DNA of 32,000 nucleotides from Methanocaldococcus jannaschii DSM 2661 (GTDB taxonomy: Archaea; AGJL01; Methanococci; Methanococcales; Methanocaldococcaceae). Shown piece after piece: positions 3,644 through 32,000 of the stretch. A program made the position numbers and the translations under genes. The stretch is taken from assembly GCF_000091665.1 (NCBI RefSeq), contig NC_000909.1, forward strand, positions 730,712-762,711, in the 5' to 3' direction. Below the pieces are notes generated by a model that was not told where the DNA came from, ran no database searches, and worked only from the letters and a program-made list of their open reading frames with translations. How positions within the stretch are numbered: position 1 is the first letter of the stretch; each line of letters opens with the position of its first letter.

Positions 3644-4963
3644 TTAAGATATAGATTTATAAATCTTCCTTGCCTCTTCATCTGCCAAATCATAAACCTT
3701 TATTACCTCATCAGAAATAGCCTTTAAAGTTTCAGTTGGGAATGTTTCAACAAACACAGAGATTAATTTAGCATTATACTCATTTTTAAACTTATCAAAC
3801 TCTTTTAAAAATACATCATTCACTTCAGCATAACCGTCAGTTATAAGCAAGATGTCAGCATTTTTAAATGTCTCATGCTCTTTTATTATACTCATAGCCC
3901 TATTCAACGGCATTATAAAGTTTGTTCCTCCACCAAAATATAATGATGCTATTTCAATTATTTCATCAAATGTTATAGTTTTTGGATTTATCTTCTTCTC
4001 AAATCTAACTCCATCATCAAAGGCAATGTAGTAGATATCTCTATTTTCCCTCTTGGCAATCTCTATTATGGATAAAGCAACGGCCTTCCCCCAAATCTCC
4101 CTATCTCCATACATTGAACCACTGTGGTCTAATAAAATAATTATAGGTCCTTTCTGCTTCTCCAACTTATTCTGAATATCATAGATTAAGAGCTTTTTAT
4201 CAACGAATCTTCTTAAAAAGTCATAATATAGAATCTCATCTGAAAGATTGACGATTTCTTTTGGAAGTAGATGCTTTAAATCCCTCCCAATTTTTGTTGA
4301 ATAAATTTCTCCAGAGTAGTGCTTAATCTTTGATTTATATTCATTTATAGCCAACAATCTCAACTTACCAAGTTTTTTAACAATCTCTCTAATCTTTTTG
4401 TTTTGCAAGATTTTATCTGCCAACTTTATCCTATCCTCTGGCGATAGTAGCTTTTTATCTCCCTCCCCTTTCCCAAAGTTTTCAACGGCATTGAATCCTT
4501 GTATAACTTCAGAAACCTCCTCTGCTATATCTTTCATAGTATTTTTGGCTATTTCTTTTAATTTATCCTCTAACCCCTCTCCTTTTCCTTCAGATGCAAA
4601 TTTCTTTAACTCTTTATTTAGTTTTGCAAGTTTTAAGTTTTCAAAGAATTTCTCACAGAACATTATTGTGGCAGTTCCAGCATTTACCTCATCCAGTTCA
4701 GTTAATAGCTTACTCTTCTCATACTCAATATTTTTTATAGCTCCCTCTAATATAGCCTTGTTTATCTTAAATTTTTCTTCAACATACTCATTGAATTCAA
4801 CAACATATTTAAAGAATGCATAAAATGTGTCTTCAGCCAATTTTTCATGAATTGGATGATATTGAGAATAATAACTAATGAGTTTTTGCAAATATTTGCT
4901 GTTCTTTAAAAATCTCTCATAAGCCTTTTTATCATAAGCATCGTGCTTTATAATGTTTTTCAT
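3644..4963 (-). CDS. ViaA-like von Willebrand factor A (VWA) domain protein
   Basis: C-terminal VWA domain with the MIDAS motif ILLDHSGSM, plus GGGTNF and LLITDG. The N-terminal helical region is long. The start is 3 nt after the stop of the RavA-like ATPase. Confidence 0.8.
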   Translation of the reverse strand: MKNIIKHDAYDKKAYERFLKNSKYLQKLISYYSQYHPIHEKLAEDTFYAFFKYVVEFNEYVEEKFKINKAILEGAIKNIEYEKSKLLTELDEVNAGTATIMFCEKFFENLKLAKLNKELKKFASEGKGEGLEDKLKEIAKNTMKDIAEEVSEVIQGFNAVENFGKGEGDKKLLSPEDRIKLADKILQNKKIREIVKKLGKLRLLAINEYKSKIKHYSGEIYSTKIGRDLKHLLPKEIVNLSDEILYYDFLRRFVDKKLLIYDIQNKLEKQKGPIIILLDHSGSMYGDREIWGKAVALSIIEIAKRENRDIYYIAFDDGVRFEKKINPKTITFDEIIEIASLYFGGGTNFIMPLNRAMSIIKEHETFKNADILLITDGYAEVNDVFLKEFDKFKNEYNAKLISVFVETFPTETLKAISDEVIKVYDLADEEARKIYKSIS

Positions 4964-4966
4964 AAC

Positions 4967-6088
4967 TTATCCCTTCAATAACCCTTCAACATACTTTTTA
5001 AAGCCCTCTACCTCTTTTAAAACATCTTCAACAAGTTCATAAGGTTTGTTAGCCTCAATTGCTTTATTTTTAACATCTTTTAAAGTTATGGACATGCTAT
5101 TCAACTTCCCTAAAATCTCAAGGCATTTTCTATATTCTATTCCTCCCAATTTAATTCTATCTTTGTTGATTTTCTTTATCTCATTCATTAAGCTGTCTAA
5201 AATTTCCCTCTGTTCTAATGCAAATCCAGCAAAGTGATTTGATATTTTAAAAATTTCTACTGAAACCTTATAGAACTCATCTGGCTCATTCCAATAGATA
5301 TGCCTCAAAATGTCTAAATCATTTTCATCAGCTTTTTCTTTGCCGTTTAGATAGGCAAAGCACTTAACTGCTTTAACTGACTTCTTAAATCTCCTGTCAG
5401 AGATTCTTATTCCCTCACTTTCAAGAGACAATTTTATTTTAATTAAATCATCTTTTATATTTGAAATATCAACCTTTAACGCTTCATTCTGCATTTTTTT
5501 AACATCTTCAACATCAATTATAGTTTTTGGCTTATATTCTTCCTCTAAATCAATCAACTTTGAGAGATTTTCATAGCTTCTTATTCCCCTAACCACTTTT
5601 CTAAACAAAAATCTATCATAAAATGCTAATAACTCATTCTCTTCTGGTAGTTCGTTTGAAGCACCGAATAAACTTATCAAAGGAACTTTCTCAATCCTAT
5701 CTCCATTGTGATAAATCCTCTCATTGATTATTGATAATAAAGCGTTTAATATTGAACTGTTAGCCTTAAAAACTTCATCTAAGAATGCTATTTCTGCAGT
5801 TGGTAGATAACCAGATGTTTTTCTAACGAATCTGTCATTATCCTTTAACTCTTTAATGCTTAAAGGGCCGAATAACTCATCTTCGGTTGTGAATCTTGTT
5901 ATAAGTTTTTCAAAGTAGTTGGCGTTTATATGGGAAGCTATAGCCCTAATTAATTGTGATTTAGCTACTCCTGGATTTCCTAAAAATACAGTATGTTCAT
6001 TAGCCAAGATTGAAGTTAAAGCAATATCAATCTCCTCCCTCCTTTCTAAAAAATATGAGTTTAACTCCTCTCTGATTTTTTCAAGCAT
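4967..6088 (-). CDS. MoxR-family AAA+ ATPase, RavA-like
   Basis: Walker A GNPGVAKS and Walker B AFLDEVFKA. The stretch TRFTTEDELFGPLSI..LKD..RFVRKTSGYLPTAEIAFLDE...ILNALLSIINER...ASNELPE...YDRF is colinear with E. coli RavA as I remember it. Confidence 0.85.
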   Translation of the reverse strand: MLEKIREELNSYFLERREEIDIALTSILANEHTVFLGNPGVAKSQLIRAIASHINANYFEKLITRFTTEDELFGPLSIKELKDNDRFVRKTSGYLPTAEIAFLDEVFKANSSILNALLSIINERIYHNGDRIEKVPLISLFGASNELPEENELLAFYDRFLFRKVVRGIRSYENLSKLIDLEEEYKPKTIIDVEDVKKMQNEALKVDISNIKDDLIKIKLSLESEGIRISDRRFKKSVKAVKCFAYLNGKEKADENDLDILRHIYWNEPDEFYKVSVEIFKISNHFAGFALEQREILDSLMNEIKKINKDRIKLGGIEYRKCLEILGKLNSMSITLKDVKNKAIEANKPYELVEDVLKEVEGFKKYVEGLLKG

Positions 6089-8936: not shown

Positions 8937-9830
8937 TTATTTTATCATTGATAAAATTTCTTCAGATGCATCTGTTGGTTCTTTAAAGCCTTTATAAACC
9001 TCTTTAACTACCTTTTTTATAAACTTCTCTTTATTTTTATCAATTTTACAACTTTGAATGCATAGAGGACAGTAATTTAAATAATTCTCATCCTTTTTAA
9101 TTTTTATTGGAAAGAGTTCAAAAAAGTTTATAATCGTTCCTTTATTATATTTAAAAACTGCAGTATCTAAACAGCTTGTAAATACGTAGCCCTCTAAATC
9201 TTCTATAATCTTATCTTTTAAAAATCCGTAGGGAAAGGAATCAATAAGATTTTTTATCTTATCCTTTGTAATGTCTAATTTTAAAAATTTATGGCCTATA
9301 TCTTTATTATTTAAAAAATTAGCAATCTTCTTCTTGGTTTTATTTGGGATTAATGCTGGGAAATCATAAGTTATTGCTTTAACATTAAAAATATTTGATA
9401 AAATATCTAAGGCATATAAATCATATTGGCAGTGAATTAAGCATATAATATTCTTTTTCTCTTTAGGAATCTTTCTGTATAAAAAATAGTTACAGATGTC
9501 TTGGATAACTTCATCATCAAATAAAGATTTAATTGCCTTTACAATTTCTTCAAATAAAACTTTGTCAGTATAATCCTCAACCCTTATAATCTCAAATCTA
9601 TTTTTCATCTCCTCCCTTAATTTTCCAACTACCCAGCCGCCAGGTCCAATAATTGTTGATTTGTCAGTTCTGTTTTTTGTGTAAATAATTAAAACTTTCC
9701 CTTCTATCTCAATATCTACAATATCAAACTCTACCTTCTTCAGTCCTAAATCTTCTCTAATCTTTAAAACTCTTTTTTTAATATCATTAATTATCTGTTC
9801 TTTTAACTGCAATAATTGTTTGTCCTGCAT
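8937..9830 (-). CDS. Hypothetical protein with N-terminal KH-like GxxG motif
   Basis: [12 protein letters not shown] is a KH-type GxxG loop. There are C-terminal Cys pairs (CPLCIQSC). A good SD (GGAGAGAGGGTG) is present. The ORF overlaps the psd 3' end by 44 nt. Confidence 0.6.
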
Positions 9831-12123: not shown

Positions 12124-13800
12124 TTAGAGGTTTTTGATTAACTCTAAAGCAGCTTCTCTTGTCTTCTCTCTGTCTCCACCAGCAACAACAATTACATCAT
12201 GTCCGTTTGCAGCATCTGGAATGAGTGCGATTGTTGCTGGGCTGTTGTTGTCTAATGCTAATTTTCCAGCATCAACTAACTCTTTTGTTAATTTGTTTGC
12301 AACCGGTCCTCCAACTAAGACCAAGTTTTTGTCAGCTGTGTCTAAGCTAACTTCTGTATCTAACTTAGCGATTGGTGCTGTTAATGAAACTGGTTCAACT
12401 GCATTAGCTTTTATATCTTTTAATTTAACTTCTGCGTTGAGTGCTTTTACTTTCTCTCCAATGTTTAATGTAGCATCAACATCTTTGTCCATTGAGAAGT
12501 ATACTTTTAATTTGTCATTTGAATCTTCGTCATCTAATTTAAACTTAACATAGTCTAAAATATCTACTTCGTCTCCACTATCTAAGTCGTCTAATTTATC
12601 TCCATCGTATCTTAAAGCAATACCTACAACTTTATCTACATTGTTATCATTTAAGTCATCTTCTAATTTCATTGTTCCATTATCGTTTAATACAGCGTAT
12701 GCTTTCCAATCAGTTACGTATTCTTCGTCAAGTTCTAATTTTTTAAGGTCTTTTGAAATAACTAATTCTGCATATCCGTAATCTCCACCAACATTTTCCC
12801 AAGCTTTATGGACTGTTACACCAACGTCATCTTTGTATTCTAATTCTAATGGAGCCTTATCATATTTTTCTGCTACAACTTTTCCATCTTTTAATATTTG
12901 GACATCTACTTTATAGACATCAGTGTTATTTACAGTAGTTTTTAATATTGCTTTTATTTTGACTTGGTATCCATTTCCTAAATCGTAAGTTTCTCCTTCT
13001 TTTATGATTCCATCATATACTGGAGTACCTAAGTATATTGCATCATCATCTTTGTCAATATCAACAACAACCATCTCTTTTCCTAAGAATGGAATTCTCA
13101 TACCTTCTTCCATTTTTGTTGTGTTAGCAAAGTTCTCTTCATCATCTTTATAAACTAATGTTTCATATAACATGTTCTTTTTATAGACAGTGAATCCATC
13201 ACTAGTATCGTTCTTTAATTCGACCATTACAATTTCTCCTGCATCATCATCACTGTCATACCAGTCTGATGGGTCAACATCATCAACTTTCATCATTGTT
13301 GCAATATCTCCTAAATCAACAGTTTTGTTTATTTTGTCAGCATCGCCTAAAACACCATTGTCCATAAATGATGGTTTTCCAGTATCATTTTCGAATTTTT
13401 CTGAATAGTCTCCATCTGATGCAGCAACGAATAATGCGTATGCATTTGCAGGCATTGCACTATTGTTCCAATCTTTCTTTAAGTCGAAGTCATCGGAATT
13501 AGCTTCTGCATGAACGGTTATGTCAGCACTTCCATCTTCAACTGTTCCTTCTTTGTAGCATAAGCTTCCTATTTTAGCAGCAATATCAGCAGCTGAAACA
13601 ACGTCCATTGTTGATGGAGCATCAGCACCTACAACAACATAGCAGTTTGGCTGTCCATCTTTAACTAATATATCTTTTAACTCTTTGTAGTCACTGAATC
13701 CTGATGTTGTTACTTCAGCAGCAACTCCACTTGCTAAAGCTGTAGCAACCATTGCCCCTCCAACTGCAATAGCACCGATTTTCTTTAAGCTCATTGCCAT
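12124..13800 (-). CDS. slmj1: S-layer protein (acidic, signal-peptide bearing)
   Basis: The signal peptide is MAMSLKKIGAIAVGGAMVATALASGVAA. The protein is very D/E/V/K-rich with almost no Cys or Gln and has several N-x-S/T sequons. A strong SD AGGTGAT is present. I recognise it as the Methanocaldococcus S-layer protein from memory. Confidence 0.9.
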   Translation of the reverse strand: MAMSLKKIGAIAVGGAMVATALASGVAAEVTTSGFSDYKELKDILVKDGQPNCYVVVGADAPSTMDVVSAADIAAKIGSLCYKEGTVEDGSADITVHAEANSDDFDLKKDWNNSAMPANAYALFVAASDGDYSEKFENDTGKPSFMDNGVLGDADKINKTVDLGDIATMMKVDDVDPSDWYDSDDDAGEIVMVELKNDTSDGFTVYKKNMLYETLVYKDDEENFANTTKMEEGMRIPFLGKEMVVVDIDKDDDAIYLGTPVYDGIIKEGETYDLGNGYQVKIKAILKTTVNNTDVYKVDVQILKDGKVVAEKYDKAPLELEYKDDVGVTVHKAWENVGGDYGYAELVISKDLKKLELDEEYVTDWKAYAVLNDNGTMKLEDDLNDNNVDKVVGIALRYDGDKLDDLDSGDEVDILDYVKFKLDDEDSNDKLKVYFSMDKDVDATLNIGEKVKALNAEVKLKDIKANAVEPVSLTAPIAKLDTEVSLDTADKNLVLVGGPVANKLTKELVDAGKLALDNNSPATIALIPDAANGHDVIVVAGGDREKTREAALELIKNL

Positions 13801-14117: not shown

Positions 14118-14891
14118 ATGAAAATAGCAATAACTGGAAAAGGAGGAGTAGGAAAAACATTTATTGCTTCAACATTAATGAGATTATTTGAAAAAAATGG
14201 ATTTAAAGTTATTGGAGTTGACTGTGATCCAAACCCTACATTGGCATTAGCTTTTGGAGTTGAGGAAGAGATAGTTCCATTATCAAAAAGACATGACATA
14301 ATAGAGGAAAGAACTGGAGCTAAACCAGGGACTTATGGAAATATTTTTAAAATAAATCCAAAAGTTGATGATTTAATAGATAAAGTTGGCTATAAAATAG
14401 GAAACATAACTCTCTTGGTTATGGGAACTATTGAAGAAGGGGGGGAGGGTTGTGTTTGTCCAGCCTCTGTTTTATTGAGAAGATTGTTAAGGCACTTAAT
14501 TTTAAAGAGAGATGAAGTTGTTATCTTAGATATGGAAGCAGGAATTGAACATTTCGGAAGAAAAACAATAGATACTGTTGATTTAATGTTAATTGTTATA
14601 GAACCAACAAAAAAATCTCTAATAACTGCAAAGAGAATGAAAAAATTAGCTAATGATTTAGGAATAAAAAACTTAGGAGTTATTGTTAATAAAGTAAGGA
14701 ATGAAGATAAAGAGTTACTAAAAGATATTATTAAAGAGGAACTTGGTTTAGAAGTTTTAGGATTTGTTCCTTATGATGAAGAAGTTATAAAAAGTGAATT
14801 CTTAGGAAAACCTATTAACTTAGATTCAAAAGCTGCAAAAGAGATTGAAAAAATATTCAACTATATCATAAAATTAAAAAATACTACTTAA
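14118..14891 (+). CDS. cooC: CooC-type nickel-insertion accessory ATPase (MinD/ParA superfamily)
   Basis: Deviant Walker A GKGGVGKT and the CooC-specific metal-binding motif EGCVCPAS (CxC). Confidence 0.8.
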   Translation: MKIAITGKGGVGKTFIASTLMRLFEKNGFKVIGVDCDPNPTLALAFGVEEEIVPLSKRHDIIEERTGAKPGTYGNIFKINPKVDDLIDKVGYKIGNITLLVMGTIEEGGEGCVCPASVLLRRLLRHLILKRDEVVILDMEAGIEHFGRKTIDTVDLMLIVIEPTKKSLITAKRMKKLANDLGIKNLGVIVNKVRNEDKELLKDIIKEELGLEVLGFVPYDEEVIKSEFLGKPINLDSKAAKEIEKIFNYIIKLKNTT

Positions 14892-21795: not shown

Positions 21796-24700
21796 ATGAT
21801 AAGTGCTAAAGATTTTGCAGAGAAAGTTATGGAATTCTATGTAATAAAGAGAGACAAAAGAAAGGAGAAATTCAATGTAAATAAATTAGCTAAATCTTTA
21901 ATAAACAGTGGGGTAAATTATGGCGATTTAGACACAATAATATCCGAAGTTTGTGCTAAAGTTTATAATGGAATAACAACCGATGAGTTAAAAGACATTG
22001 TTTATAATGTTTTAAAGAAGATTGATAAGGATGTAGCTGAGAATTATAGAAATGGGATTATATTGAAGGTTAGAACATCTGAAAAAGAGTTTGAGTCATT
22101 TGACAAAGAAAAGATTGCAAAAGCATTGATTAGAGAGACAGGGGCAGATGAAGAAACAGCTAGAAAGATAGCTGATGAGGTTGAGAGAGAACTAAAAAAA
22201 CTTAAAGTCAAATACTTAACAGCACCGATGATTAGGGAAATAGTCAATTACAAGTTAATAGAGTATGGATTTGAAGAACTAAGACATAAGCACACAAGAT
22301 TAGGAATGCCAGTCTATGATATAACCAAATTGATAAAGAGTGGTTCAAGAGAGAATGCCAACTTAATGTATAACCCAGAATCAATCCATAAATGGGTTGC
22401 TGATGAAACAATGAAGCAATATGCTTTATTAGCCATCTTCCCAAAACACATAGCTGATGCTCATATAAAAGGGGATATACACTTACACGATTTGGAATAT
22501 GCAGCAACAAGACCTGTTTGTTTGCAACATGATTTAAGACCATTCTTTAAATATGGTTTAAAAGTTGATGGAACTGGATTGCATACTTCTGTTTCAAAAC
22601 CTGCAAAGCATCCTGAAGTAGCTATACAGCATGCGGCTAAGGTTATGATGGCCGCCCAGACAAATATGAGTGGAGGACAAAGTATAGATGAGTTTAATGT
22701 TTGGTTAGCTCCTTATGTTAGAGGGCTTAGCTATGAAAAAATAAAGCAGTTAATGCAGATGTTTATTTATGAACTAAATCAAATGTACGTAGCAAGAGGA
22801 GGACAGAGCTTAGGTAGAGATGAATTAATCTTCATAAAAGAGGGAGATAAATTAAAAGTTTGCAAAATTGGAGAAGCGATTGATGAATTTATGGAGAAAT
22901 ATAAAGATAAAATAATAGTAGATGGAGACACGGAAATCCTCTACTTGGATGGCATTGCTGAAGTTTATACAATATCAGTTAATGTTAAGACTGGAAAGGC
23001 AGAGTTTAAGAGAGTTTATGCGATATCAAGACACAAACCAAGAGGGAAGGTTTATAAAGTTATTGGTAAGGATGGGACTTCTATAATAGTAACAGAAGAC
23101 CATTCATTATTTAACTATGATGAAAACGGTAATTTAGTCTGTGTTAAGCCACGACAAATGAAGCATATTATCAGAAACTTTAACAATCCGTATGATGTTG
23201 AGTATAGAATTGGAGATTATATAGAAACTAACTACCAAAGAACTGATTCAAAATATAATAGCAGACAAAATGATATCCCAGAAAAATTAAAAATAACAAA
23301 AGAACTTTGTCAATTCTTAGGTTTGTTTGTTGCTGAGGGAAGTTATATTACAAACGGCATTTCAATAACTACAAAAGATGATGACATAGCTAAATTTATT
23401 GAGAGATTTGTGAAGGAGCAGATAAATGAAAATATTGCAGTTAAAAGATATGAGGACTCTGTAAGATTTGTAAATAAAGGATTCTATAGGTTCTTAAAGG
23501 AACATATAAATGGAAAGGCAATAAACAAAAACAGCCCAGAGTTCATACTAAAAGGAGACAAAGAAATGAAATTAGCATTCTTGGGAGGATTAATAAGTGG
23601 AGATGGGTATGTTAGTAAAGATGGAAGAGTGCAGATATATACAACATCTGAACAACTATTAGGACAATTACATTTGTTGCTATCTGACTTAGGAATGATT
23701 TATTCAATAACCAAAATAAAAGAGGAAGGGGAAAAGATTGAGATTAAAAGAAATGAAATAGTAAGAAATTACAAACTATACGTCATTGAAATTGCTAAAA
23801 ATTGCACAGAAGATTTAAAACCTTATGTAATTCCAAAATACAAAAAAGAGAGAATAAAGCCAGCTAACTATGACCAATTACCTTATGACTATAGAATAAT
23901 AAAAGAACATCTAAGAAAAATAACAGATAAAAAACCATACAACGATTATGCATGGAAATCAAATAATAGAAAATTAAAACTCAACACATTAGAAAAAATT
24001 GAGCAACTTAATCCACATTTAAGAGAAGAAATAAATAAATTTAAGCTAAATATCCCATTTGAAATAAAAGAGATTAAAGAGATTGACTATAATGGATATG
24101 TCTATGATTTGAGCGTTGAGGATAATGAGAACTTTATAACAGCTACTGGTATCTTATGCCACAATACAATATTCAGCTCCATTAACTTAGAATTGGAAAT
24201 CCCAGAGTTTTTAAAGGATAAGCCAGCAGTGATAGCTGGAACTACAAGAGGAACTTATGGAGATTATGAGGAGGAGGCGAAGTTAATCTTAGAGGCATTA
24301 GTTGATGTGATGATGGAAGGAGATGCAATGGGAAAACCATTCTTATTCCCAAACTTTATAATTAAGTTGAGAGAGAATGCCTTTAAAGATGAAAATAAAG
24401 AACTTATGTATAAAATCCACCAATTGTCTGCTAAGTTTGGGATTCCTTACTTTATAAACATGCTTCCAGATTGGCAGGTAACTAATACAAATGCAATGGG
24501 TTGTAGAACAAGGTTGAGTGGAAATTGGACAGGAGACGCTGAGATAGACACTTTAAGAACTGGAAACATGCAGTGGTACTCTCTAAACTTACCGAGAATA
24601 GCTTATGAGGCAAATGGAGATGATACTAAGTTATTTGAGATATTGCATGAAAGGTTAGAGATTTTGAAAGAAGCATTATTAATAAAACATGAAGTTACAA

Positions 24701-27048
24701 AAGAGAGGTTGTATGTTGATAACTTAATGCCTTTCCTAACTCAGGAGTTTGATGGAGAATCATATTATAGGTATGAGAACACAACAAAAACATTTGGATT
24801 TGTTGGATTGAATGAGATGCTTAAATATCATTTGGGAGAAGAATTACATGAGTCAAAAGATGCAGTTAAGTTTGGTGAAAAGGTTATTGAATATATTAGG
24901 GAGTATGCTGATAAGTTAAAGGAAGAGACTGGTTTAAGATGGACTGTAACACAAACACCGGCTGAAAGTTCGTTACCTTACGATGAGAAGATATTGATAT
25001 TTGAAAATAATGAATACAAATTAGTTAAAATTGGTGAATTTGTTGAGAAATATCTGAACAGATATAAAGATAGAGCAATAACTTATGGAGATAACAATAT
25101 TGAGGTTTATATTAAAGATGAAAACATCTATGCTCCTTCATTTGATAAAGATGGAAAAATTGTCTTAAAACCAATTACTCATGCTATCAGACATAGGGGT
25201 AAAGAAATCTATGAGATAGAATTGGAGAGTGGTAAAAAAGTTAGAGTTACTGGAGACCATAGTGTATTCACTATAAATGACAATTTAGATGTTGTAGAAG
25301 TAAAGGCATCTGATTTAAAGGTTGGAGACTTTATAATAACTCCAAAGATTATTCCAAGCATAAGTAAAGATAAGATTTACTTAAGTGAAATCGTTAAAAA
25401 TAAAGACAAATACTATGTAAAAATAAAAGACCATATCAAATTCATTGAAGAGCATGAAGAAATTCTAAAGGAGAGCTATAAAGAATATAAAACTAAATGG
25501 AAAGATTTAAAACCAGTATTAAAGAAGAAAAATGCCTTCAGATTAGATTTAATTGAAGATTTAGTCGATAAAGAGAAAATTGAAAAAATAAGCTATGGAC
25601 ATGCAAATTACATTAACAATAAGATAAAACTTGATGAGAAATTTGGTTATCTAATTGGAGCATTCTTGTCAGAGGGTCATTGGAATGACAAATGTGTTGA
25701 AATATCGAGCACCAATAAAGAGTTTATTGAAAACTTAGTAGAGATTATTGAAGAAATATTAGGAAAAGATGCATATTACATTACTGTTAAAGGTGATAAG
25801 AGAAGGTATAAAGATTTGTATGTAATTGGACTAAATAAAACAGTAGCCATGATATTTGAGAGTTTGGGATTAAATAAACTAAGCTCAAATAAAGAGATTC
25901 CATCCATATTATTGTCAAATGAAACATTCTTAAAAGGTTTAATTAAAGGCTATATAGATGGAGACGGAAGTATATATGTGGATGAATCAAAAAGAGATTA
26001 TAGCATAAGGTTATACACAACATCTGAAACATTAAGGGATACCTTATGTTTAGCTTTGAAAATCCTTGGAATTAACTATAGACTAAGCATAGATAAAAAA
26101 TCAAAAGTAAATGAAAATTGGAGAGATTGTTATGTTATAAAAATTACTGGAAAAGAAAATATTGAAAAGCTATTGGATGTTGAAATTAAGAACAACGGAG
26201 GAAAGGATGTAATTCCAAAAATAGCAGAGAAGTTTAAAGAAATAATAAATCAATATTCACAAAGAGAGTGGAAAGAAAGATTTGGTATTGATGTTAATAA
26301 TCTGCATATATGGGAAGACTTAAAGAAGGGATACATGAGTAGATATAGAGCTAAAAAAGTTTTGAATATAATGAAGAATGTTAAAGAAATTGAAGAAAAA
26401 TATGGTAGGTTGTTGGATAAAATAGGGCAGTTGATAGATAATGACTTACTCTTTGAAAGAATAAAATCAATAAGAGTATTGGATGAAATTCCAGAATATG
26501 TATATGATATCTCAGTTGAAGGTACTGAGAACTTTATTGGTGGAGAAGGGTTTATTTGCCTACATAACACAGCAGGAAGATTTGCAAGGTTGGATTACAA
26601 ATACTACAAAGAAGAAACCATAAGTGTTGTTAGAGGAGACTTAAATGATGTGGATAGTCTCTACTATACAAATTCTTCTCATGTTAGAGTTGATGCCCCT
26701 ATAACTTTAGGAGAGAAAGTTAGGATTGAAGAGAAGTTCCATCCTTTGTGTAACGGTGGGCATATAATGCATATTTGGAATATTGAGAGTGCTGCAGACC
26801 CTGAGGTATTGATGGATATAACAAAAAAGATAACAAAAACACATATCGGTTTCTGGACATACACAAAAAATCTAAGCGTTTGTAATAGATGTGGAATAAG
26901 TATGGGAGGTTTGAGAGATAGGTGTATAAATTGTGGTTCTGAGGATGTAGCTAAGTTCAGTAGAATAACAGGATATCTACAAAATATTTCAAACTGGAAT
27001 AGAGCTAAGCAAAAAGAGTTAGAAGATAGGAAATTACCAAGGATTTAA
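21796..27048 (+). CDS. nrdD: Anaerobic (class III) ribonucleoside-triphosphate reductase precursor with two inteins
   Basis: Two N-terminal ATP-cone-like segments. Extein motifs YVARGGQ | TIFSSINLE and TQTPAES | TAGRFARLD flank the inteins. At the C-terminus are a Zn ribbon (CNRCG..CINCG) and the glycyl-radical loop [16 protein letters not shown] is 4 nt before the ATG. The mature protein is 764 aa by subtraction. Confidence 0.95.
22807..24165 (+). mobile_element. Intein 1 of nrdD (453 aa) with LAGLIDADG homing-endonuclease domain
   Basis: It starts with Ser ([10 protein letters not shown]). Block B is VTEDH. The LAGLIDADG motifs are [14 protein letters not shown] and [14 protein letters not shown]. 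It ends [20 protein letters not shown], followed by Thr+1. Confidence 0.9.
24970..26568 (+). mobile_element. Intein 2 of nrdD (533 aa) with LAGLIDADG homing-endonuclease domain
   Basis: It starts with Ser ([11 protein letters not shown]). Block B is VTGDH. The LAGLIDADG motifs are [14 protein letters not shown] and [16 protein letters not shown]. It ends [21 protein letters not shown], followed by Thr+1. The N-terminal boundary could be one Ser earlier (24967). Confidence 0.88.
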
Positions 27049-27079: not shown

Positions 27080-27508
27080 TTATTGGTATAGAGTAACAAT
27101 TACATGTGTCTCATCTATTTTAGTTATATTTGCAATTATTATTTTAGGGGTAGAAACTGTTTTATTTCCGTTTAAAATTATGTTAATATCACATTTTGCC
27201 GTTATGTTAAATTTAATATTTCCATCACGATAAAAATATAAAATATTATTATTAGCTCCCCAAGTTCCTGGGGGACATTTTATATAAACAATCTTCATAG
27301 TGCCTTCATCTGCAGAAGATACTAATTCTATGTTTTGCTTCATTTTAGACACAGCGGCATGAGCTAAACTCATGGAAGAGATACTAACTGTTTTATTAAA
27401 CCCAAACATTCCAGGATATCCAACGGCAATAACAATTGCAAGTAAAACCCCCAAAAATAATAAAGAAAATTCTAAGGATATCTGACCTCTTTTTCTAAAT
27501 TTGAGCAT
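27080..27508 (-). CDS. Pilin-like protein with class III (type IV prepilin-like) signal peptide, DUF361/QxSxEF type
   Basis: The N-terminus is MLKFRKRG|QISLEFSLLFLGVLLAIVIAVG: a basic n-region, Gly-1, Gln+1, a SLEF motif, then a hydrophobic helix. SD GGGGAT is 4 nt upstream. Confidence 0.8.
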   Translation of the reverse strand: MLKFRKRGQISLEFSLLFLGVLLAIVIAVGYPGMFGFNKTVSISSMSLAHAAVSKMKQNIELVSSADEGTMKIVYIKCPPGTWGANNNILYFYRDGNIKFNITAKCDINIILNGNKTVSTPKIIIANITKIDETHVIVTLYQ

Positions 27509-27523
27509 AAAAATCCCCGTAAG

Positions 27524-28351
27524 TTAATTATTATATTTATAATAAATTATGTAATAAAACCTTATTGGTTGATTTGATGAAGTTGTGAAAGCCATGGCAG
27601 GAACATCGAATATTTTAAATTTAAAGTGTGTATCATCACCCAACACATCATTATCCATTTTTGGAATTAGCGGGTCATTGTTATCTATATGGATATTTTC
27701 TCTTTCCATCTGATTTTTATACCATTCGTTATATGAGGAAATCCAAATATCGACGTTATCATCTCCAAATTTATGAAACTCATCATAATTGTCTATGACT
27801 AGAGGAGCAGGCACAATAATACTTAATGATTCTGTGTCATTTCCTTTTACAATATATCCACTAACATAAAGTTTGAATTTCCCAATTTTTATCCCTTCAT
27901 ATTTTGCATCTGGAAAGAGCTTATTTAAATCAATGACATTTACTTTATTAACTACAGCAGGTCCAACAACATCATAATTTTCTTGTGACTCATCAATTTT
28001 TATATCATAGGTTATTGGAGTATAGTGGTAGATGTTAATCTTTACTGTAGTATATGGAGGAATCCAAAATCCTTCCTTTCCATTAAATATCGTTTTATAA
28101 AAAACAATTCCAGAAGTTTGTGTAACGGAAGTACTAACATCTAAAAAATCTTCTGGTTTTGGCAATGTTTTCTCTTCAAATGTTATATTTGAAGGTACTG
28201 CGACAAATATTGAATATGGGTTAGTATTGGTTATTTCTCCAGTTAGCTTATATGTTATACTCATCTCTGCAATTGTTCTTTCTCCACAAATTGAATGTAA
28301 AAACAACGAGCATAGCACAATAAATACTATCAGTTTTATGAGTGATTTCAT
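27524..28351 (-). CDS. Secreted hypothetical protein (signal peptide, N-glycosylation sequons)
   Basis: MKSLIKLIVFIVLCSLFLHSICG is a signal-peptide-like N-terminus. ATG 28351 lies behind GGTGAT; the track start at 28357 is a TTG. The protein is beta-rich and Y/N/T-rich. No family recognised. Confidence 0.6.
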   Translation of the reverse strand: MKSLIKLIVFIVLCSLFLHSICGERTIAEMSITYKLTGEITNTNPYSIFVAVPSNITFEEKTLPKPEDFLDVSTSVTQTSGIVFYKTIFNGKEGFWIPPYTTVKINIYHYTPITYDIKIDESQENYDVVGPAVVNKVNVIDLNKLFPDAKYEGIKIGKFKLYVSGYIVKGNDTESLSIIVPAPLVIDNYDEFHKFGDDNVDIWISSYNEWYKNQMERENIHIDNNDPLIPKMDNDVLGDDTHFKFKIFDVPAMAFTTSSNQPIRFYYIIYYKYNN

Positions 28352-28367
28352 AAACAATCACCAAAAT

Positions 28368-29078
28368 TTATTTTAGATTAAACATTTCTTTTTTGATTTC
28401 AGCGTTTTTTGGATGATTCCACCAATCCAACTGTGTTATTAAAAATCGTCTATTATTGTGAGGAATTAAAAACATGTCAGGGGTATCAGCATAAAATTTG
28501 GGAATATATTTCATATCTCTAACTATAACAATGTTATTTAGATTATAATTTTTATAAATTATTGCATAGTCGGGACAGTAATAGTTTTCACATAAATATG
28601 TACTTTCAACTAACACCATTTTACCATTATCTAACTGAACTGCAACCCACATATGACTTCCGCTATTTCCATAGGTGTCCAATATTCCATATACTAAATA
28701 TGTTTTGAACCCATATCCCTCTAATATCCATTCTAACTGACATGATGCCTCTGAACAGTCGTAATAATTCTTTTTATACGCTGGCAATTTAATAGTTTTT
28801 AGAATATAACTTAATGTGTCTAAATCTCTTTTTTTAACATCAGGAAACATTTTATCAGAGAGTTCATAATAATTTTTCGGAAATTTATACATTTTTGGAT
28901 AAGTTTTTGGTAAATCATGATTTAAAAATATATTCTGGTCATAATTTGGATTTTTTGTGTTATTTGGTTCATTTAGTTCATAATGTCTGTTATATTCGAC
29001 AAAACTATATGATTTTTCGTAACATCCACAAAATATGGAAATTAGGATAATGGTTATAAAAAAATATTTATAATCCAT
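28368..29078 (-). CDS. Transglutaminase-like (papain-fold) putative cysteine protease, predicted lipoprotein/secreted
   Basis: A signal sequence ending in the lipobox-like SIFCGC. The core YYDCSEASCQLEWILEGYGFKTYLVYG...GSHMWVAVQLDNGKMVLVEST fits the Cys...His...Asp/Glu transglutaminase-like pattern. ATG 29078 is at SD-compatible spacing. Confidence 0.55.
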   Translation of the reverse strand: MDYKYFFITIILISIFCGCYEKSYSFVEYNRHYELNEPNNTKNPNYDQNIFLNHDLPKTYPKMYKFPKNYYELSDKMFPDVKKRDLDTLSYILKTIKLPAYKKNYYDCSEASCQLEWILEGYGFKTYLVYGILDTYGNSGSHMWVAVQLDNGKMVLVESTYLCENYYCPDYAIIYKNYNLNNIVIVRDMKYIPKFYADTPDMFLIPHNNRRFLITQLDWWNHPKNAEIKKEMFNLK

Positions 29079-29106
29079 AAACATCCCTTAACTCAAATCC
29101 CTGGAC

Positions 29107-30240
29107 TTATTCTTTGGACTTTATTACAATAACTATATCTTTAGGGTCTATTTGTATTATGTCAGGAATTTTATCATCAGGAATTGAGATAATTAAGAAA
29201 TAATTAACATTTTCATCGAATATTTGAGTATCATCTTCAATTTCATTTAATTTTTTTCCATATTCTCCAAACATCTTTTTTATTTTATCGTAATCGAGTC
29301 TGTCTATGACTGTTGCATGTAATATGCCTGGAAGGTTATTTAATGAGTAAGATATACTTGAAGAGGAAGATGAGGAGTAAGATTCTCCAAGCTCATTTAT
29401 ATTACTTGATGTTGATTTACTTTCACTGTAACTTATAGAGGATAAAATTACATAGGATGAATCTATGATACCATATGTTATGAACGAACCGTCTTTACTG
29501 TATATTGAAATTATATCTCCTTTATGTGGTAACTTACCACACTGTTTTGCAGATATTTCAATTGCTACTTTATTTAATTGTGATACTGGAGTTATTTTTA
29601 GAGATTTGAGTTCGGATAATGTCCAGAATTTTTTATATTTAAGAATTTCATCTCTTGTCATAAACATGGATTTTCCATTAATTTCTACATAATAATATTT
29701 ATCTCCTGAGGCTAAAACATAATCAATCTGCTTTTCTATGATGCTCCTAATGTCTTTTTCTATATCAACAGACTTTAATAGATTTTCAATCTCTTCAGTA
29801 GATTGTGCCAAGCTTATTTTATGCACTAATTCCTGAGCAGATAAACTTAGAGAATAATATTCCCCATACATACTTTTTATTTGGTTAATAGCCTCAATTT
29901 TATAATTTTTAAAGCTAATGTACTTTTTAGCTTCTTCCAACACTTCGTTAATTTCTTCAATATTATTCGCCATTTGGATTTTGTTTATATATATTAGTTT
30001 TTGTGGGTCGTTAGGGTATTTGGCAAACATCTGATTTATTGATTCAATAGCTGCTTTTTTCTGGTTTTCAAGCGTTATTTTTTCTTGAAACTGTAGGTTA
30101 CTGATTTCATTATATGCGATAAATGCTAATAACCCAACAATTACAACAACCAGTATTATCAATATAAATTTTAATGAACCAGATTTCACCGTTCTTCTAC
30201 TTTTCTCTTTTAATGCTTTAATTTTTGAAGTATCTACCAT
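29107..30240 (-). CDS. Single-pass membrane protein with coiled-coil ectodomain and poly-Ser linker
   Basis: A basic N-terminus, then the TM helix LKFILIILVVVIVGLLAFIAY, a long helical region, and a Ser-rich tract (SESKSTSS...SYSSSSSSSISYS). SD GGTGAT is 3 nt before the ATG. No family recognised with confidence. Confidence 0.6.
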   Translation of the reverse strand: MVDTSKIKALKEKSRRTVKSGSLKFILIILVVVIVGLLAFIAYNEISNLQFQEKITLENQKKAAIESINQMFAKYPNDPQKLIYINKIQMANNIEEINEVLEEAKKYISFKNYKIEAINQIKSMYGEYYSLSLSAQELVHKISLAQSTEEIENLLKSVDIEKDIRSIIEKQIDYVLASGDKYYYVEINGKSMFMTRDEILKYKKFWTLSELKSLKITPVSQLNKVAIEISAKQCGKLPHKGDIISIYSKDGSFITYGIIDSSYVILSSISYSESKSTSSNINELGESYSSSSSSSISYSLNNLPGILHATVIDRLDYDKIKKMFGEYGKKLNEIEDDTQIFDENVNYFLIISIPDDKIPDIIQIDPKDIVIVIKSKE

Positions 30241-30294
30241 ACAATCACCCTAACTTTAATATTACAAAATTATATGGTTTGTTATCATGGCCTA

Positions 30295-30687
30295 TTATGG
30301 ATTTACGGTTATATTATATTCACTTTGGTTTATTTTTGTGACATTATAAATATAGCTTACAATAAAATTCTTTATTTCTGGAGTAATATATGATTTAGGT
30401 GAGATATAAATGTATATATTTTTCTTATTCCCTGACCATGAAATTCCCCCATAGATTAAAGTGACATTTGGGTTAATTCCATTATATCCTGAATTTGCCA
30501 ATATTACAGCAGTTTTTGCTGCATTTTCAACATCACTTATAACCTTATCATCCTTTGTGAAATTCTGTGATAGAAAATGGCTTATTGTTATAATAGATGC
30601 CAACAATATAGCAAGGAATAAAAATGAGAATTCAAGAGATACCTGGGCTTTTTTTGATTTTATTATTTTATTTTCCATGGTATTCAC
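30295..30687 (-). CDS. Pilin-like protein with class III signal peptide, DUF361/QxSxEF type
   Basis: ...KIIKSKKA|QVSLEFSFLFLAILLASIITI has the same signature as 27080-27508. An alternative start is ATG 30678 (MENKII...). Confidence 0.8.
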   Translation of the reverse strand: MNTMENKIIKSKKAQVSLEFSFLFLAILLASIITISHFLSQNFTKDDKVISDVENAAKTAVILANSGYNGINPNVTLIYGGISWSGNKKNIYIYISPKSYITPEIKNFIVSYIYNVTKINQSEYNITVNP

Positions 30688-30690
30688 ACT

Positions 30691-31710
30691 TTAGATTATT
30701 GCTAACTTCATCAACATTAAAACTATAACATAACCAATGACAACAAACGGAACAAATGGGTAGGTTTTTATAACATTTAGTTTGTCAGGGATTTTTCCCT
30801 CCATATAGAGTTTTTTTATTTTTCGAATGTCTTCATTGGATAACCCTTCTCCATCGGTTAATATTATTTCCTTTTCATTTTCTTTGATTTCATGTTCTAA
30901 TAGAAATTTTATTCTTTTCATTATATTTAAGTTTTTTACCTCAACACCATCTTTGTCTATTATTATAACATCCCTCAAAATATCTCCTTCTTTTAATTCT
31001 TCAATATGTTTTTTGTCAGAAGTTTCTACACCCGTGAGTGCATAAATAACGATAGATATTAGTATTATTTCACAAAGGTATATTATGGATGTTAATAGCA
31101 CATTATATTTAATAAAATAAGTTGTATCAATAATATATAAGAATAACAAATAAGCAGGGAATAAATATCCTAATTTTTTCGTATATTCTTTGTATTTTGG
31201 AACTTTTCTTGAGACAAAGATAGATAGGACAATATAAGCCCATATAATTATTGAAGCGTATGGAATTTCGTAGATATTTATAAAATAATATAATATACCA
31301 AGCATCATAGTTAAATAACAAGCTGAAGGAATAATATCTTTCCAATATCTCATTAAAATTTTATACATCGGAAAAACTGCGGCGATAAACATACTAATTG
31401 CTATTAAGTAGAGAATATATTTTGGAATATAAAATACAAACGAGTTTGGATACGCAAAAATTGGAGCTAAAGCGGTGAATAGCTTAACATCTCCTCCTCC
31501 CATTCCAATACTTAATATTAAACATAATATTAGAGTAGAGAAAAACGCAATAATAGCATTAAATCCAAAATAGTAATAACCAACAACTAAGTTTATTATA
31601 ATCATGGCAATTGTGTATTTATGAGGAATAATTCTTTCTTTAATATCAGTTATTGCTGCTAAAAGGAGTAAAATAAAGTTAATAATATAAACTACATTTA
31701 GCAAATCCAC
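30691..31710 (-). CDS. eppA: Archaeal type IV prepilin peptidase, EppA-like (aspartic protease, polytopic membrane protein)
   Basis: The two catalytic Asp contexts are AAITDIKERIIP and GMGGGDVKLF (GxGDxK). There are many TM helices and a ~85-aa soluble insert before the last TM. The GTG start lies behind AGGTGA. The gene is adjacent to QxSxEF substrates. Confidence 0.8.
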   Translation of the reverse strand: MDLLNVVYIINFILLLLAAITDIKERIIPHKYTIAMIIINLVVGYYYFGFNAIIAFFSTLILCLILSIGMGGGDVKLFTALAPIFAYPNSFVFYIPKYILYLIAISMFIAAVFPMYKILMRYWKDIIPSACYLTMMLGILYYFINIYEIPYASIIIWAYIVLSIFVSRKVPKYKEYTKKLGYLFPAYLLFLYIIDTTYFIKYNVLLTSIIYLCEIILISIVIYALTGVETSDKKHIEELKEGDILRDVIIIDKDGVEVKNLNIMKRIKFLLEHEIKENEKEIILTDGEGLSNEDIRKIKKLYMEGKIPDKLNVIKTYPFVPFVVIGYVIVLMLMKLAII

Positions 31711-31714
31711 AATT

Positions 31715-32000
31715 TCACCTATTTGGATATTTGGCTTTAACCCTATCTTTTATTTTTAACATCAACTCATGGTTATCTAAGAGCTTTAAAGCCTCATCTA
31801 TATCTTTATCTTTGGTTAAATTTAAAATTTCTCTTAAGATTTCAGTGGCAACATCTTCCCTATGAACCCAAAAACACTTCATACAACTCCAAATCTTTGT
31901 TCCATCTTTTTTTTCAACATACTCTCCTAATTCTTCATCTTCACATGGATAGAAAGGGCAGTAACACCATAAGCAAACCTGTCCATCAAAGTGGCATGGG
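31715..32000 (-). CDS. Cysteine-rich small-domain protein, partial (5' end outside window)
   Basis: The minus strand gives an open frame from the window edge: PCHFDGQVCLWCYCPFYPCEDEELGEY...WSCMKCFWVH...KAKYPNR*. The stop TGA (31715-31717) lies inside the eppA SD. It is absent from the ORF track because no start codon is in the window. Confidence 0.6.
   Translation of the reverse strand, partial: PCHFDGQVCLWCYCPFYPCEDEELGEYVEKKDGTKIWSCMKCFWVHREDVATEILREILNLTKDKDIDEALKLLDNHELMLKIKDRVKAKYPNR

Follow-up and report, generated by a model that had tools for sequence, protein, structure and literature searches.

A gene cluster of Methanocaldococcus jannaschii very probably represents the promoter-proximal half of the epd pilus operon and carries a lineage-specific insert

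What does a compact cluster of pilin and peptidase genes build when the genes for an assembly ATPase and a membrane platform are nowhere beside it? The question is raised by six open reading frames (ORFs) on the minus strand at positions 27080-31710 of a 32,000-nucleotide (nt) stretch of the Methanocaldococcus jannaschii DSM 2661 chromosome; we refer to this whole 32-kb stretch, all of which was analysed, as the window. An earlier note, written from the letters of the window, had described a prepilin peptidase, two pilin-like proteins and three middle proteins that it could not place in any characterised pilus component, and had proposed a type IV-like fibre with undescribed accessory factors. 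We consider it highly likely that the cluster instead corresponds, in M. jannaschii, to the promoter-proximal half of a known system, the EppA-dependent (Epd) type IV-like pilus operon. Methanococcus maripaludis uses its Epd pili to attach to surfaces and for natural DNA uptake. The system is thus already known; the modest interest that remains lies in a single gene, MJ0834, and in the variable central cassette. Our confidence in the roles of individual accessory proteins is much lower than our confidence in the identity of the system.

All six ORFs appear in the ORF list of the window, on the minus strand and at the coordinates first given for them, and the intervening gaps, read from eppA down to MJ0832.1, are indeed 3, 54, 22, 10 and 15 nt. 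Exact look-up names their products, in the same direction, MJ0835.2, MJ0835.1, MJ0835, MJ0834, MJ0833 and MJ0832.1. Shine-Dalgarno (SD) sequences had been noted throughout: clear SD-like motifs (GGTGA, GGGTGAT or GGGGAT, 5-8 nt before the start) precede eppA, the gene for a protein with domain of unknown function DUF515 (MJ0835), MJ0833 (at its ATG) and MJ0832.1, while weaker ones stand ahead of MJ0835.1 and MJ0834. Gene-caller output and SD spacing both speak for slightly shorter products, of 127, 236 and 275 amino acids (aa), in three cases. The peptidase gene, which had been taken for the first of the series, is itself preceded by another: a zf-like gene (PF04071; Cys-rich product of 119 aa) ends 4 nt before the eppA start, and its 3' part occupies 31715-32000 on the minus strand, the full gene running to ~32074 and being cut by the end of the window. 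In the extended M. jannaschii locus this gene is in turn preceded by a TATA-like element, TTTAAATA, and an AAGGTG SD motif. Judged by sequence, it is with the zf-like gene, the orthologue of MMP0231, that the operon really begins; the cluster then comprises seven genes. At the other end, the last gene of the cluster, MJ0832.1, is convergent with nrdD, the stop codon of which ends at 27048. The small gaps and SD motifs look like those of one transcription unit, as had been suggested; a promoter and terminator scan with a sigma-70 model, which is not applicable to an archaeon, returned sites no more often than in shuffled controls.

The evidence that carries the Epd assignment is gene-by-gene synteny and orthology with mmp0231-mmp0236. 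We took the eppA neighbourhood of M. maripaludis and compared all of its ORFs with the genes of the window by BLASTP: the M. jannaschii cluster follows mmp0231-mmp0236 in order and strand, with protein identities of 35-64%, the highest of these being between the zf-like protein and the protein at the MMP0231 position (64%). The comparison of neighbourhoods across Methanococcales, which the earlier note had proposed, brings out a known operon rather than a new one. In M. maripaludis, the 11 genes mmp0231-mmp0241 form one transcript, as determined by reverse transcription PCR, and have been analysed by deletions: normal piliation depends on eppA, epdA, epdB, epdC, mmp0234, mmp0239, mmp0240 and mmp0241, of which eppA, epdB, epdC and the four mmp genes are classed as essential, mmp0238 is dispensable like mmp0235, and mmp0231 resisted deletion (PMC4187195, PMC3875500, PMC4371748). 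In addition, natural transformation is lost when a transposon lands in eppA, epdA, epdF or the gene that separates epdF from epdB (PMC10133366). The two operons share a dedicated EppA, pilins with Gln at position +1, a DUF515 protein and the location of ATPase and platform genes outside the operon. They differ in that M. jannaschii has one gene more, MJ0834, which separates the DUF515 gene from the MMP0235 orthologue, and in that its cluster ends after the EpdB-type pilin, against nrdD, the distal five genes not being contiguous with it.

EppA (MJ0835.2; 30691-31710, minus strand, 339 aa) is firmly identified. Its sequence is that of the database entry EPPA_METJA ('Prepilin peptidase EppA'; 100% identity), and its identity to the M. 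maripaludis enzyme is 53%. NF053826, the NCBIfam equivalog model for EppA, gives it 543 bits, the cut-off being 450, and Peptidase_A24 and Arc_PepC are matched as well. The two aspartate motifs of prepilin peptidases that had been recognised in it, DIKERIIP (Asp22) and GGGDVKLF (Asp74), are present, and neither Asp varies among 12 aligned Methanococcales homologues. Against the model for FlaK, the archaellum peptidase, it reaches only 19 bits (cut-off 330). By these sequence criteria EppA is a polytopic A24 aspartyl prepilin peptidase for class III signals with Gln at +1. A 2015 review already lists EppA as 'MMP0232, MJ0835.2', citing Szabo et al. 2007 (PMC4343526), and the enzyme is known to require Gln at +1 in substrates that FlaK refuses (PMC4371748).

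Such substrates are encoded on either side of the middle genes. MJ0835.1 (30295-30687, minus strand; a 130-aa ORF, or 127 aa when read from the ATG at 30678, its likely start) and MJ0832.1 (27080-27508, minus strand, 142 aa) both carry the public name 'Probable pilin' and both match PF04021 (Class_IIIsignal; E 1.1e-10 and 6.6e-10, respectively). Their predicted cleavage sites, KKA|QVSLEF in MJ0835.1 and KRG|QISLEF in MJ0832.1, place Gln at +1 and Glu at +5, and a six-frame scan found these to be the sole occurrences of the motif in the window. In N-terminal alignments the pattern (G/A)|Q(I/V/L)S(L/F/V)E(F/L) is kept across species in both types of pilin, which bears out the two DUF361-type signals reported at first reading. 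MJ0835.1 is 38% identical to M. maripaludis EpdA and MJ0832.1 is 43-45% identical to EpdB, each at the same operon position as its counterpart; we describe them as EpdA-type and EpdB-type minor pilin precursors.

Two of the three middle proteins also have counterparts in M. maripaludis. MJ0835 (29107-30240, minus strand) is a bitopic membrane protein that matches PF04415 (DUF515) over its full length (491 bits) and is 46% identical to the 382-aa M. maripaludis DUF515 protein MMP0234, encoded at the epdF position; the name epdF for this gene is taken from the gene order in PMC10133366. It has a basic N-terminus (+5) and, as had been noticed, a transmembrane segment, of which there is just one, and a Ser-rich linker; it is predicted to keep its N-terminus in the cytoplasm and to expose a large part, including the Ser-rich linker, on the outside. 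Sequence and profile searches gave no meaningful match in the PDB. We also considered whether MJ0835 might be a cryptic pilin cleaved at 'KSG|S', and rejected the idea: the motif is not conserved in a six-species alignment and there is no PF04021 match. In M. maripaludis, deletion of mmp0234 showed the gene to be essential for piliation (PMC4187195).

MJ0833 (27524-28357, minus strand; a 277-aa ORF with its likely start at the ATG at 28351, giving 275 aa) is publicly annotated as uncharacterised. It is 35-36% identical over its full length to the 297-aa M. maripaludis protein MMP0235, encoded at the same position, and its 42 homologues come nearly all from Methanococcales. The AlphaFold2 (AF2) model (mean predicted local distance difference test, pLDDT, 81; predicted template-modelling score 0.74) consists of a helix at residues 3-23 followed by a beta-rich body with long strands, in keeping with the secreted, beta-rich protein originally described. 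MJ0833 matches no Pfam or NCBIfam family, has no relative of solved structure by sequence search, and lacks a conserved class III cleavage motif (no PF04021 match, and none in the motif scan of the window). The fold search that the earlier note had proposed for it produced no credible match in the PDB or BFVD: Foldseek hits to pore-forming toxins and capsid proteins were of low probability, with template-modelling (TM) scores < 0.25, and we regard them as noise. The M. maripaludis orthologue is dispensable for piliation; mmp0235 and mmp0238 encode signal peptides, and their products were suggested to be possible tip adhesins (PMC4187195). A 2026 preprint ascribes an adhesin-like domain to mmp0235 (bioRxiv 10.64898/2026.04.22.720090).

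With these identities in hand, the first proposal can be weighed: that the locus specifies a distinct, undescribed type IV-like fibre with novel middle proteins, perhaps one that does without a conventional ATPase and platform. It draws on the lack of ATPase and platform genes anywhere in the 32-kb window, on the lack of a Pfam or NCBIfam family for MJ0834 and MJ0833, and on an MJ0833 model with no recognisable fold match. Part of the proposal is sound, in that EppA, two EppA-type pilins and the synteny with the epd operon do indicate a non-archaellum type IV-like fibre, and no fla or arl genes are found at the locus. Yet the claim of an undescribed system runs up against one-to-one orthology with mmp0231-mmp0236, an operon that has been dissected genetically; of the three supposedly uncharacterised proteins, the orthologues of the DUF515 protein (MMP0234/EpdF) and of MJ0833 (MMP0235) have been tested by genetics, which leaves only MJ0834 outside. 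The missing assembly genes, too, lose their significance: in M. maripaludis the ATPase mmp0040 (EpdL) and the platform genes mmp0038/0039 (EpdJ/K) lie at a separate locus, yet are essential (PMC4187195, PMC3875500). Because of this arrangement, a window that lacks them is what would be expected. We regard a new type of fibre at this locus as scarcely credible.

Comparison with other Methanococcales supports the epd assignment and also shows what counts against it. (A profile search of genome contigs with the EppA alignment was overwhelmed by bacterial A24 peptidases, which carry a generic GMGGGD motif, and contributed only two useful loci.) The gene order of M. jannaschii recurs in strain FS406-22, the EppA of which is 91% identical to that of M. 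jannaschii, and in Methanocaldococcus fervens, Methanocaldococcus indicus and Methanotorris igneus, and is shared by four Methanocaldococcus species, M. jannaschii included. The loci of all four Methanocaldococcus end at the EpdB-type pilin, against nrdD; among the loci compared, the distal epd genes directly follow EpdB in M. maripaludis and M. igneus only. The distal half of the operon (EpdC, MMP0238, EpdG, EpdH and the DUF2341 protein EpdI) lies neither in the window nor within 10 kb downstream of the four Methanocaldococcus loci, where tblastn and BLASTP gave no match to EpdC, EpdG, EpdH or EpdI. These negative results weigh against the Epd assignment, and other points add to them: Pfam scans and neighbour annotation of the other ORFs of the window disclose no PilB/FlaI-type ATPase and no PilC/FlaJ-type platform, so that their absence from the window, as first remarked, is real, and no EpdE-type major pilin lies in the window either; a complete Epd system elsewhere in the M. 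jannaschii genome is assumed by us; the transcript, the cleavage and the filament are carried over from the M. maripaludis orthologues; and the roles that we would give to MJ0835 (an essential structural accessory at the assembly site) and to MJ0833 (an exported or N-terminally anchored protein, most likely concerned with adhesion or surface recognition) are borrowed by analogy from the same organism.

It might be argued from the missing distal genes that M. jannaschii has kept a decayed or reduced remnant: only the proximal half of the operon, no pili, and an EppA that processes scattered pilin-like proteins. None of EpdC, EpdG, EpdH and EpdI/DUF2341 is encoded in the 10 kb downstream in M. 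jannaschii, FS406-22, M. fervens or M. indicus, and in Methanothermococcus okinawensis (locus L020, 9523-12111) the operon has been broken up, such that only the zf-like gene and eppA are still adjacent, followed by two small unrelated ORFs and then a hydrogenase/antiporter-type cluster. The M. jannaschii genes themselves do not look decayed, however. All seven ORFs are intact and their SD motifs are kept; all genes are under purifying selection, the ratio of nonsynonymous to synonymous substitution rates (dN/dS) being 0.11-0.16 relative to FS406-22, and the values for MJ0834, compared with M. igneus, being dN 0.21 and dS ~1.5; gene order is maintained across the four Methanocaldococcus species; and pilus loci that are split between distant sites are normal for this system (PMC3875500, PMC4858521). 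We therefore judge a remnant to be very unlikely, and retain the view that the cluster is the proximal half of an Epd operon.

The comparison also reveals that the operon does not evolve uniformly along its length. When M. jannaschii is set against FS406-22, dS climbs from 0.41 in eppA to 0.88 in MJ0833. When it is set against M. fervens, the central segment (M. fervens locus L022, 11459-13763, versus 27524-30240 in the window) stands out: identity is 43% for the DUF515 protein and 38% for MJ0833, as compared to 84-87% for the zf-like protein and EppA and ~70% for both pilins (69-87% for the flanks overall). The more distant M. igneus is closer to M. jannaschii in just these proteins (67% for the DUF515 protein and 53% for MJ0833). 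This mosaic divergence, together with the doubling of dS, suggests that the segment has either been replaced as a cassette or has evolved at an accelerated rate: the DUF515 gene, MJ0834 where it is present, and MJ0833 would form a co-varying unit that is exchangeable or fast-evolving. Such behaviour would fit proteins that are surface-exposed and interact with one another. As a separate observation, the epd operon of M. igneus has an archaeosortase D/PIP-CTERM cassette inserted between its EpdC-like and EpdG-like genes (locus L019, 15230-18226), which encodes a 775-aa protein with beta-helix, PKD and CARDB domains, a 75-aa class III protein (TIGR04205, 75 bits) and ArtD (TIGR04175, 191 bits). 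The archaeosortase homologue artE is among the candidate genes associated with transformation in M. maripaludis (PMC10133366).

This leaves MJ0834 (28368-29084, minus strand; publicly annotated as uncharacterised), which is a lineage-specific insert and the only gene of the cluster outside the M. maripaludis operon pattern. It had been described at first reading as a transglutaminase-like putative lipoprotein. The N-terminal hydrophobic segment of the protein ends in FCGC, and (F/S/L)CGCYE is kept in five operon-type homologues, although distant members of the family have no Cys there; MJ0834 may thus be membrane- or lipid-anchored, with a candidate lipobox in the operon-type subfamily only. 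Residues 17-65, which are Asn-rich and modelled as disordered, suggest a tether between this anchor and the folded core. Close homologues are rare (10 among 5.8 billion proteins), and a profile search extends the family to 295 representatives with varied extra domains, zf-AN1 and CARDB among them. Across 62 diverse members of the family, Cys110, His144 and Glu160 are at least 90% conserved, and in the close homologues they are invariant.

The AF2 model places these three residues in the layout of transglutaminase/papain-like enzymes. Its core (residues 71-200) has block-mean pLDDT values of 79-95, but 67 for residues 101-110. Cys110 stands at the N-terminus of helix 110-123, strands 127-137, 140-150 and 156-159 follow, His144 lies on strand 140-150, and Glu160 comes directly after strand 156-159. 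Foldseek searches of the PDB rank mostly transglutaminase-like Cys enzymes at the top (probability up to 0.98). On the basis of the conserved Cys-His-Glu set, its placement in the model and these fold matches, we describe the domain as a probable, not an established, transglutaminase/papain-like Cys-His-Glu enzyme. With TglA of Streptococcus pyogenes, vasohibins, arylamine N-acetyltransferases and PeiP/PeiW, MJ0834 shares a Cys at the N-terminus of a helix, and a His and an acidic residue on or by the next strands; the arylamine N-acetyltransferases that it matches include a Cys-His-Glu one, and PeiP/PeiW are pseudomurein endoisopeptidases of methanogen viruses. It is unlike transglutaminase/papain-like enzymes in that its third residue is Glu, the usual one being Asp, and in lacking a significant sequence or profile match to them.

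Several results of the profile and fold searches that had been proposed for this protein count against the assignment. The Foldseek scores are weak (E 0.01-0.1, TM scores 0.2-0.33). In hhalign, the Cys and His motifs of the MJ0834 family align with those of PeiP, but at an E of 0.033 and a probability of 1.5%, which is not significant. MJ0834 has no Pfam or NCBIfam match, neither Transglut_core nor a related family is among the commonest families in the 62 relatives, and neither the single sequence nor the family profile finds a sequence match in the PDB. As to its connection with pili, the epd loci of FS406-22, M. fervens, M. indicus and M. maripaludis have no counterpart of MJ0834, and its distant homologues, which are 290-342 aa long, 38-42% identical and devoid of the lipobox Cys, are each encoded on their own between the genes for NFACT (RqcH-like) and arginyl-tRNA synthetase (loci L025, 6496-7524; L026, 3029-3901; L027, 1442-2314). 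Because these homologues sit outside pilus loci, a pilus role for MJ0834 is argued from position only.

Two readings of this insert deserve consideration. In the first, MJ0834 would be a general envelope cysteine enzyme, concerned with maintenance of the S-layer or pseudo-periplasm, that landed in the operon and has no pilus-specific function. Its absence from the epd operons of the nearest relatives and of M. maripaludis would then be natural, as would the stand-alone family members beside the NFACT and arginyl-tRNA synthetase genes, and the breadth of a 295-representative family with zf-AN1, CARDB and other additions. Against this, the M. igneus orthologue, with 60% identity, holds the same place in its operon, flanked by the genes for the DUF515 protein and MJ0833; in a metagenome-assembled genome (contig JBMXQY010000020; locus L024, 7243-10000) a trio of MJ0834-, MJ0833- and EpdB-like genes has remained intact even apart from eppA and the DUF515 gene, beside a gene of the IS605 OrfB helix-turn-helix type; the M. 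jannaschii gene fits tightly between its neighbours, with gaps of 22 and 10 nt; and a 2016 census reported a strong link between transglutaminase-family surface peptidases and this class of pilus in Methanococci (PMC4858521). A general envelope enzyme is possible, if somewhat unlikely. In the second reading, MJ0834 would be dedicated to the pilus and would covalently edit Epd pilins or the putative adhesin MJ0833 (by trimming, isopeptide cross-linking or glutamine chemistry), and would constitute, with the DUF515 protein and MJ0833, a fast-evolving surface-recognition cassette that passes between Methanococcales lineages without the conserved peptidase and pilin genes. The strong divergence of M. 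fervens in the DUF515 protein and MJ0833 and the doubling of dS across the segment would agree with this, but we rate the combined proposal as doubtful. We also considered whether MJ0834 might act as a glutaminyl cyclase on the Gln+1 ends of the pilins; this is unlikely, since there is no MJ0834-type gene in the epd locus of M. maripaludis.

Taking the cluster as the proximal half of an Epd operon, we can sketch how its products might cooperate. Transcription would begin at a promoter upstream of the zf-like gene, just past the end of the window, and would yield one transcript for seven genes; we infer a single transcript because of the 3-54-nt gaps, the SD motifs and the co-transcription of the M. 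maripaludis orthologues. EppA, through Asp22 and Asp74, would then strip the short basic leader from MJ0835.1 (at A|Q) and MJ0832.1 (at G|Q), the peptidase family being clear from the sequence and cleavage being known from M. maripaludis only; the small major pilin or pilins, encoded elsewhere, would be processed by EppA as well. Going by their orthologues, the mature EpdA- and EpdB-type minor pilins would prime or complete a filament of major pilin, assembled by an EpdL ATPase and two EpdJ/K platform proteins from a distant locus. MJ0835 may be a structural accessory that the assembly site cannot do without, placed under or inside the S-layer. MJ0833 would be exported and would not be needed to build the fibre, adhesion or surface recognition being its most likely contribution. 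The last step is the weakest: MJ0834 could be an optional addition, a cysteine enzyme on a tether whose action on pilins or on envelope proteins nearby would be trimming, degradation or cross-linking.

The arrangement resembles other type IV-like systems to different degrees. In the 2016 census, Makarova et al. assign the EppA with nine transmembrane segments to 'clade 1' archaeal type IV pili and link a Cys-rich cytoplasmic family to them (PMC4858521). The cluster is like clade 1, or 'system 1' of the MacSyFinder models (2026 preprint), in having an EppA-type peptidase, minor pilins, extra membrane proteins and a Cys-rich cytoplasmic protein; the census also names arCOG02164 for this clade, to which MJ0834 could not be mapped. 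With bacterial Tad/Flp pili the Epd system has in common a dedicated aspartyl peptidase and small pilins with Glu at +5, along with two platform paralogues and one ATPase (PMC4371748, 2026 preprint). It departs from them in that DUF515, MJ0833 and MJ0834 have no Tad homologues, in that there is no secretin or outer-membrane part, and in that EppA is a longer archaeal peptidase with Arc_PepC. The archaellum offers class III signal peptides, an A24 peptidase and type IV pilus-like assembly as points of similarity; the Gln+1 substrates (PMC4371748) and the 19-bit score of EppA noted above set the present system apart from that of FlaK.

Methanococci adhere and take up DNA by means of their Epd pili, among whose accessory proteins DUF515/EpdF, MMP0235 and the zf-like protein have been defined by genetics only. 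The window does not add a new system to this picture. It indicates that a hyperthermophile keeps the proximal operon, that the central DUF515-MJ0833 segment is variable, and that some lineages add a probable cysteine enzyme to this segment. MJ0834 is thereby a concrete candidate for an enzyme that handles archaeal pilins after translation. In practice, the analysis is useful chiefly in that MJ0832.1-MJ0835.2 and the upstream zf-like gene can be annotated as an epd operon.

Elsewhere in the window, the plus-strand neighbour of the cluster encodes NrdD, the anaerobic ribonucleotide reductase (21796-27048), as a 1750-aa product with two inteins; the orthologous protein of FS406-22 (937 aa) contains a single intein, and those of M. 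fervens (764 aa) and M. maripaludis (770 aa) contain none. A MinD/CbiA-type P-loop ATPase is encoded at 14118-14891 (plus strand). We examined this gene as a possible pilus-linked FleN/MinD and set it aside: its score against archaeal MinD is 83 bits, below the cut-off of 202, and it is weakly similar to a ParA-like gene near the trio on contig JBMXQY010000020. Two minus-strand ORFs have no significant family: a 297-aa one at 8937-9830 (Pfam, NCBIfam), and a 138-aa one at 1227-1643 with a weak IS110-transposase-like match (E 5e-4). Near the MinD/CbiA-type gene, an S-layer protein gene (S_layer_N/S_layer_C) lies at 12124-13800 on the minus strand, likewise with no demonstrable link to the pilus locus, and at 3644-6088, also on the minus strand, a MoxR-type AAA+ ATPase (bpMoxR, AAA_5) and then a VWA-domain protein are encoded as a MoxR-VWA pair.

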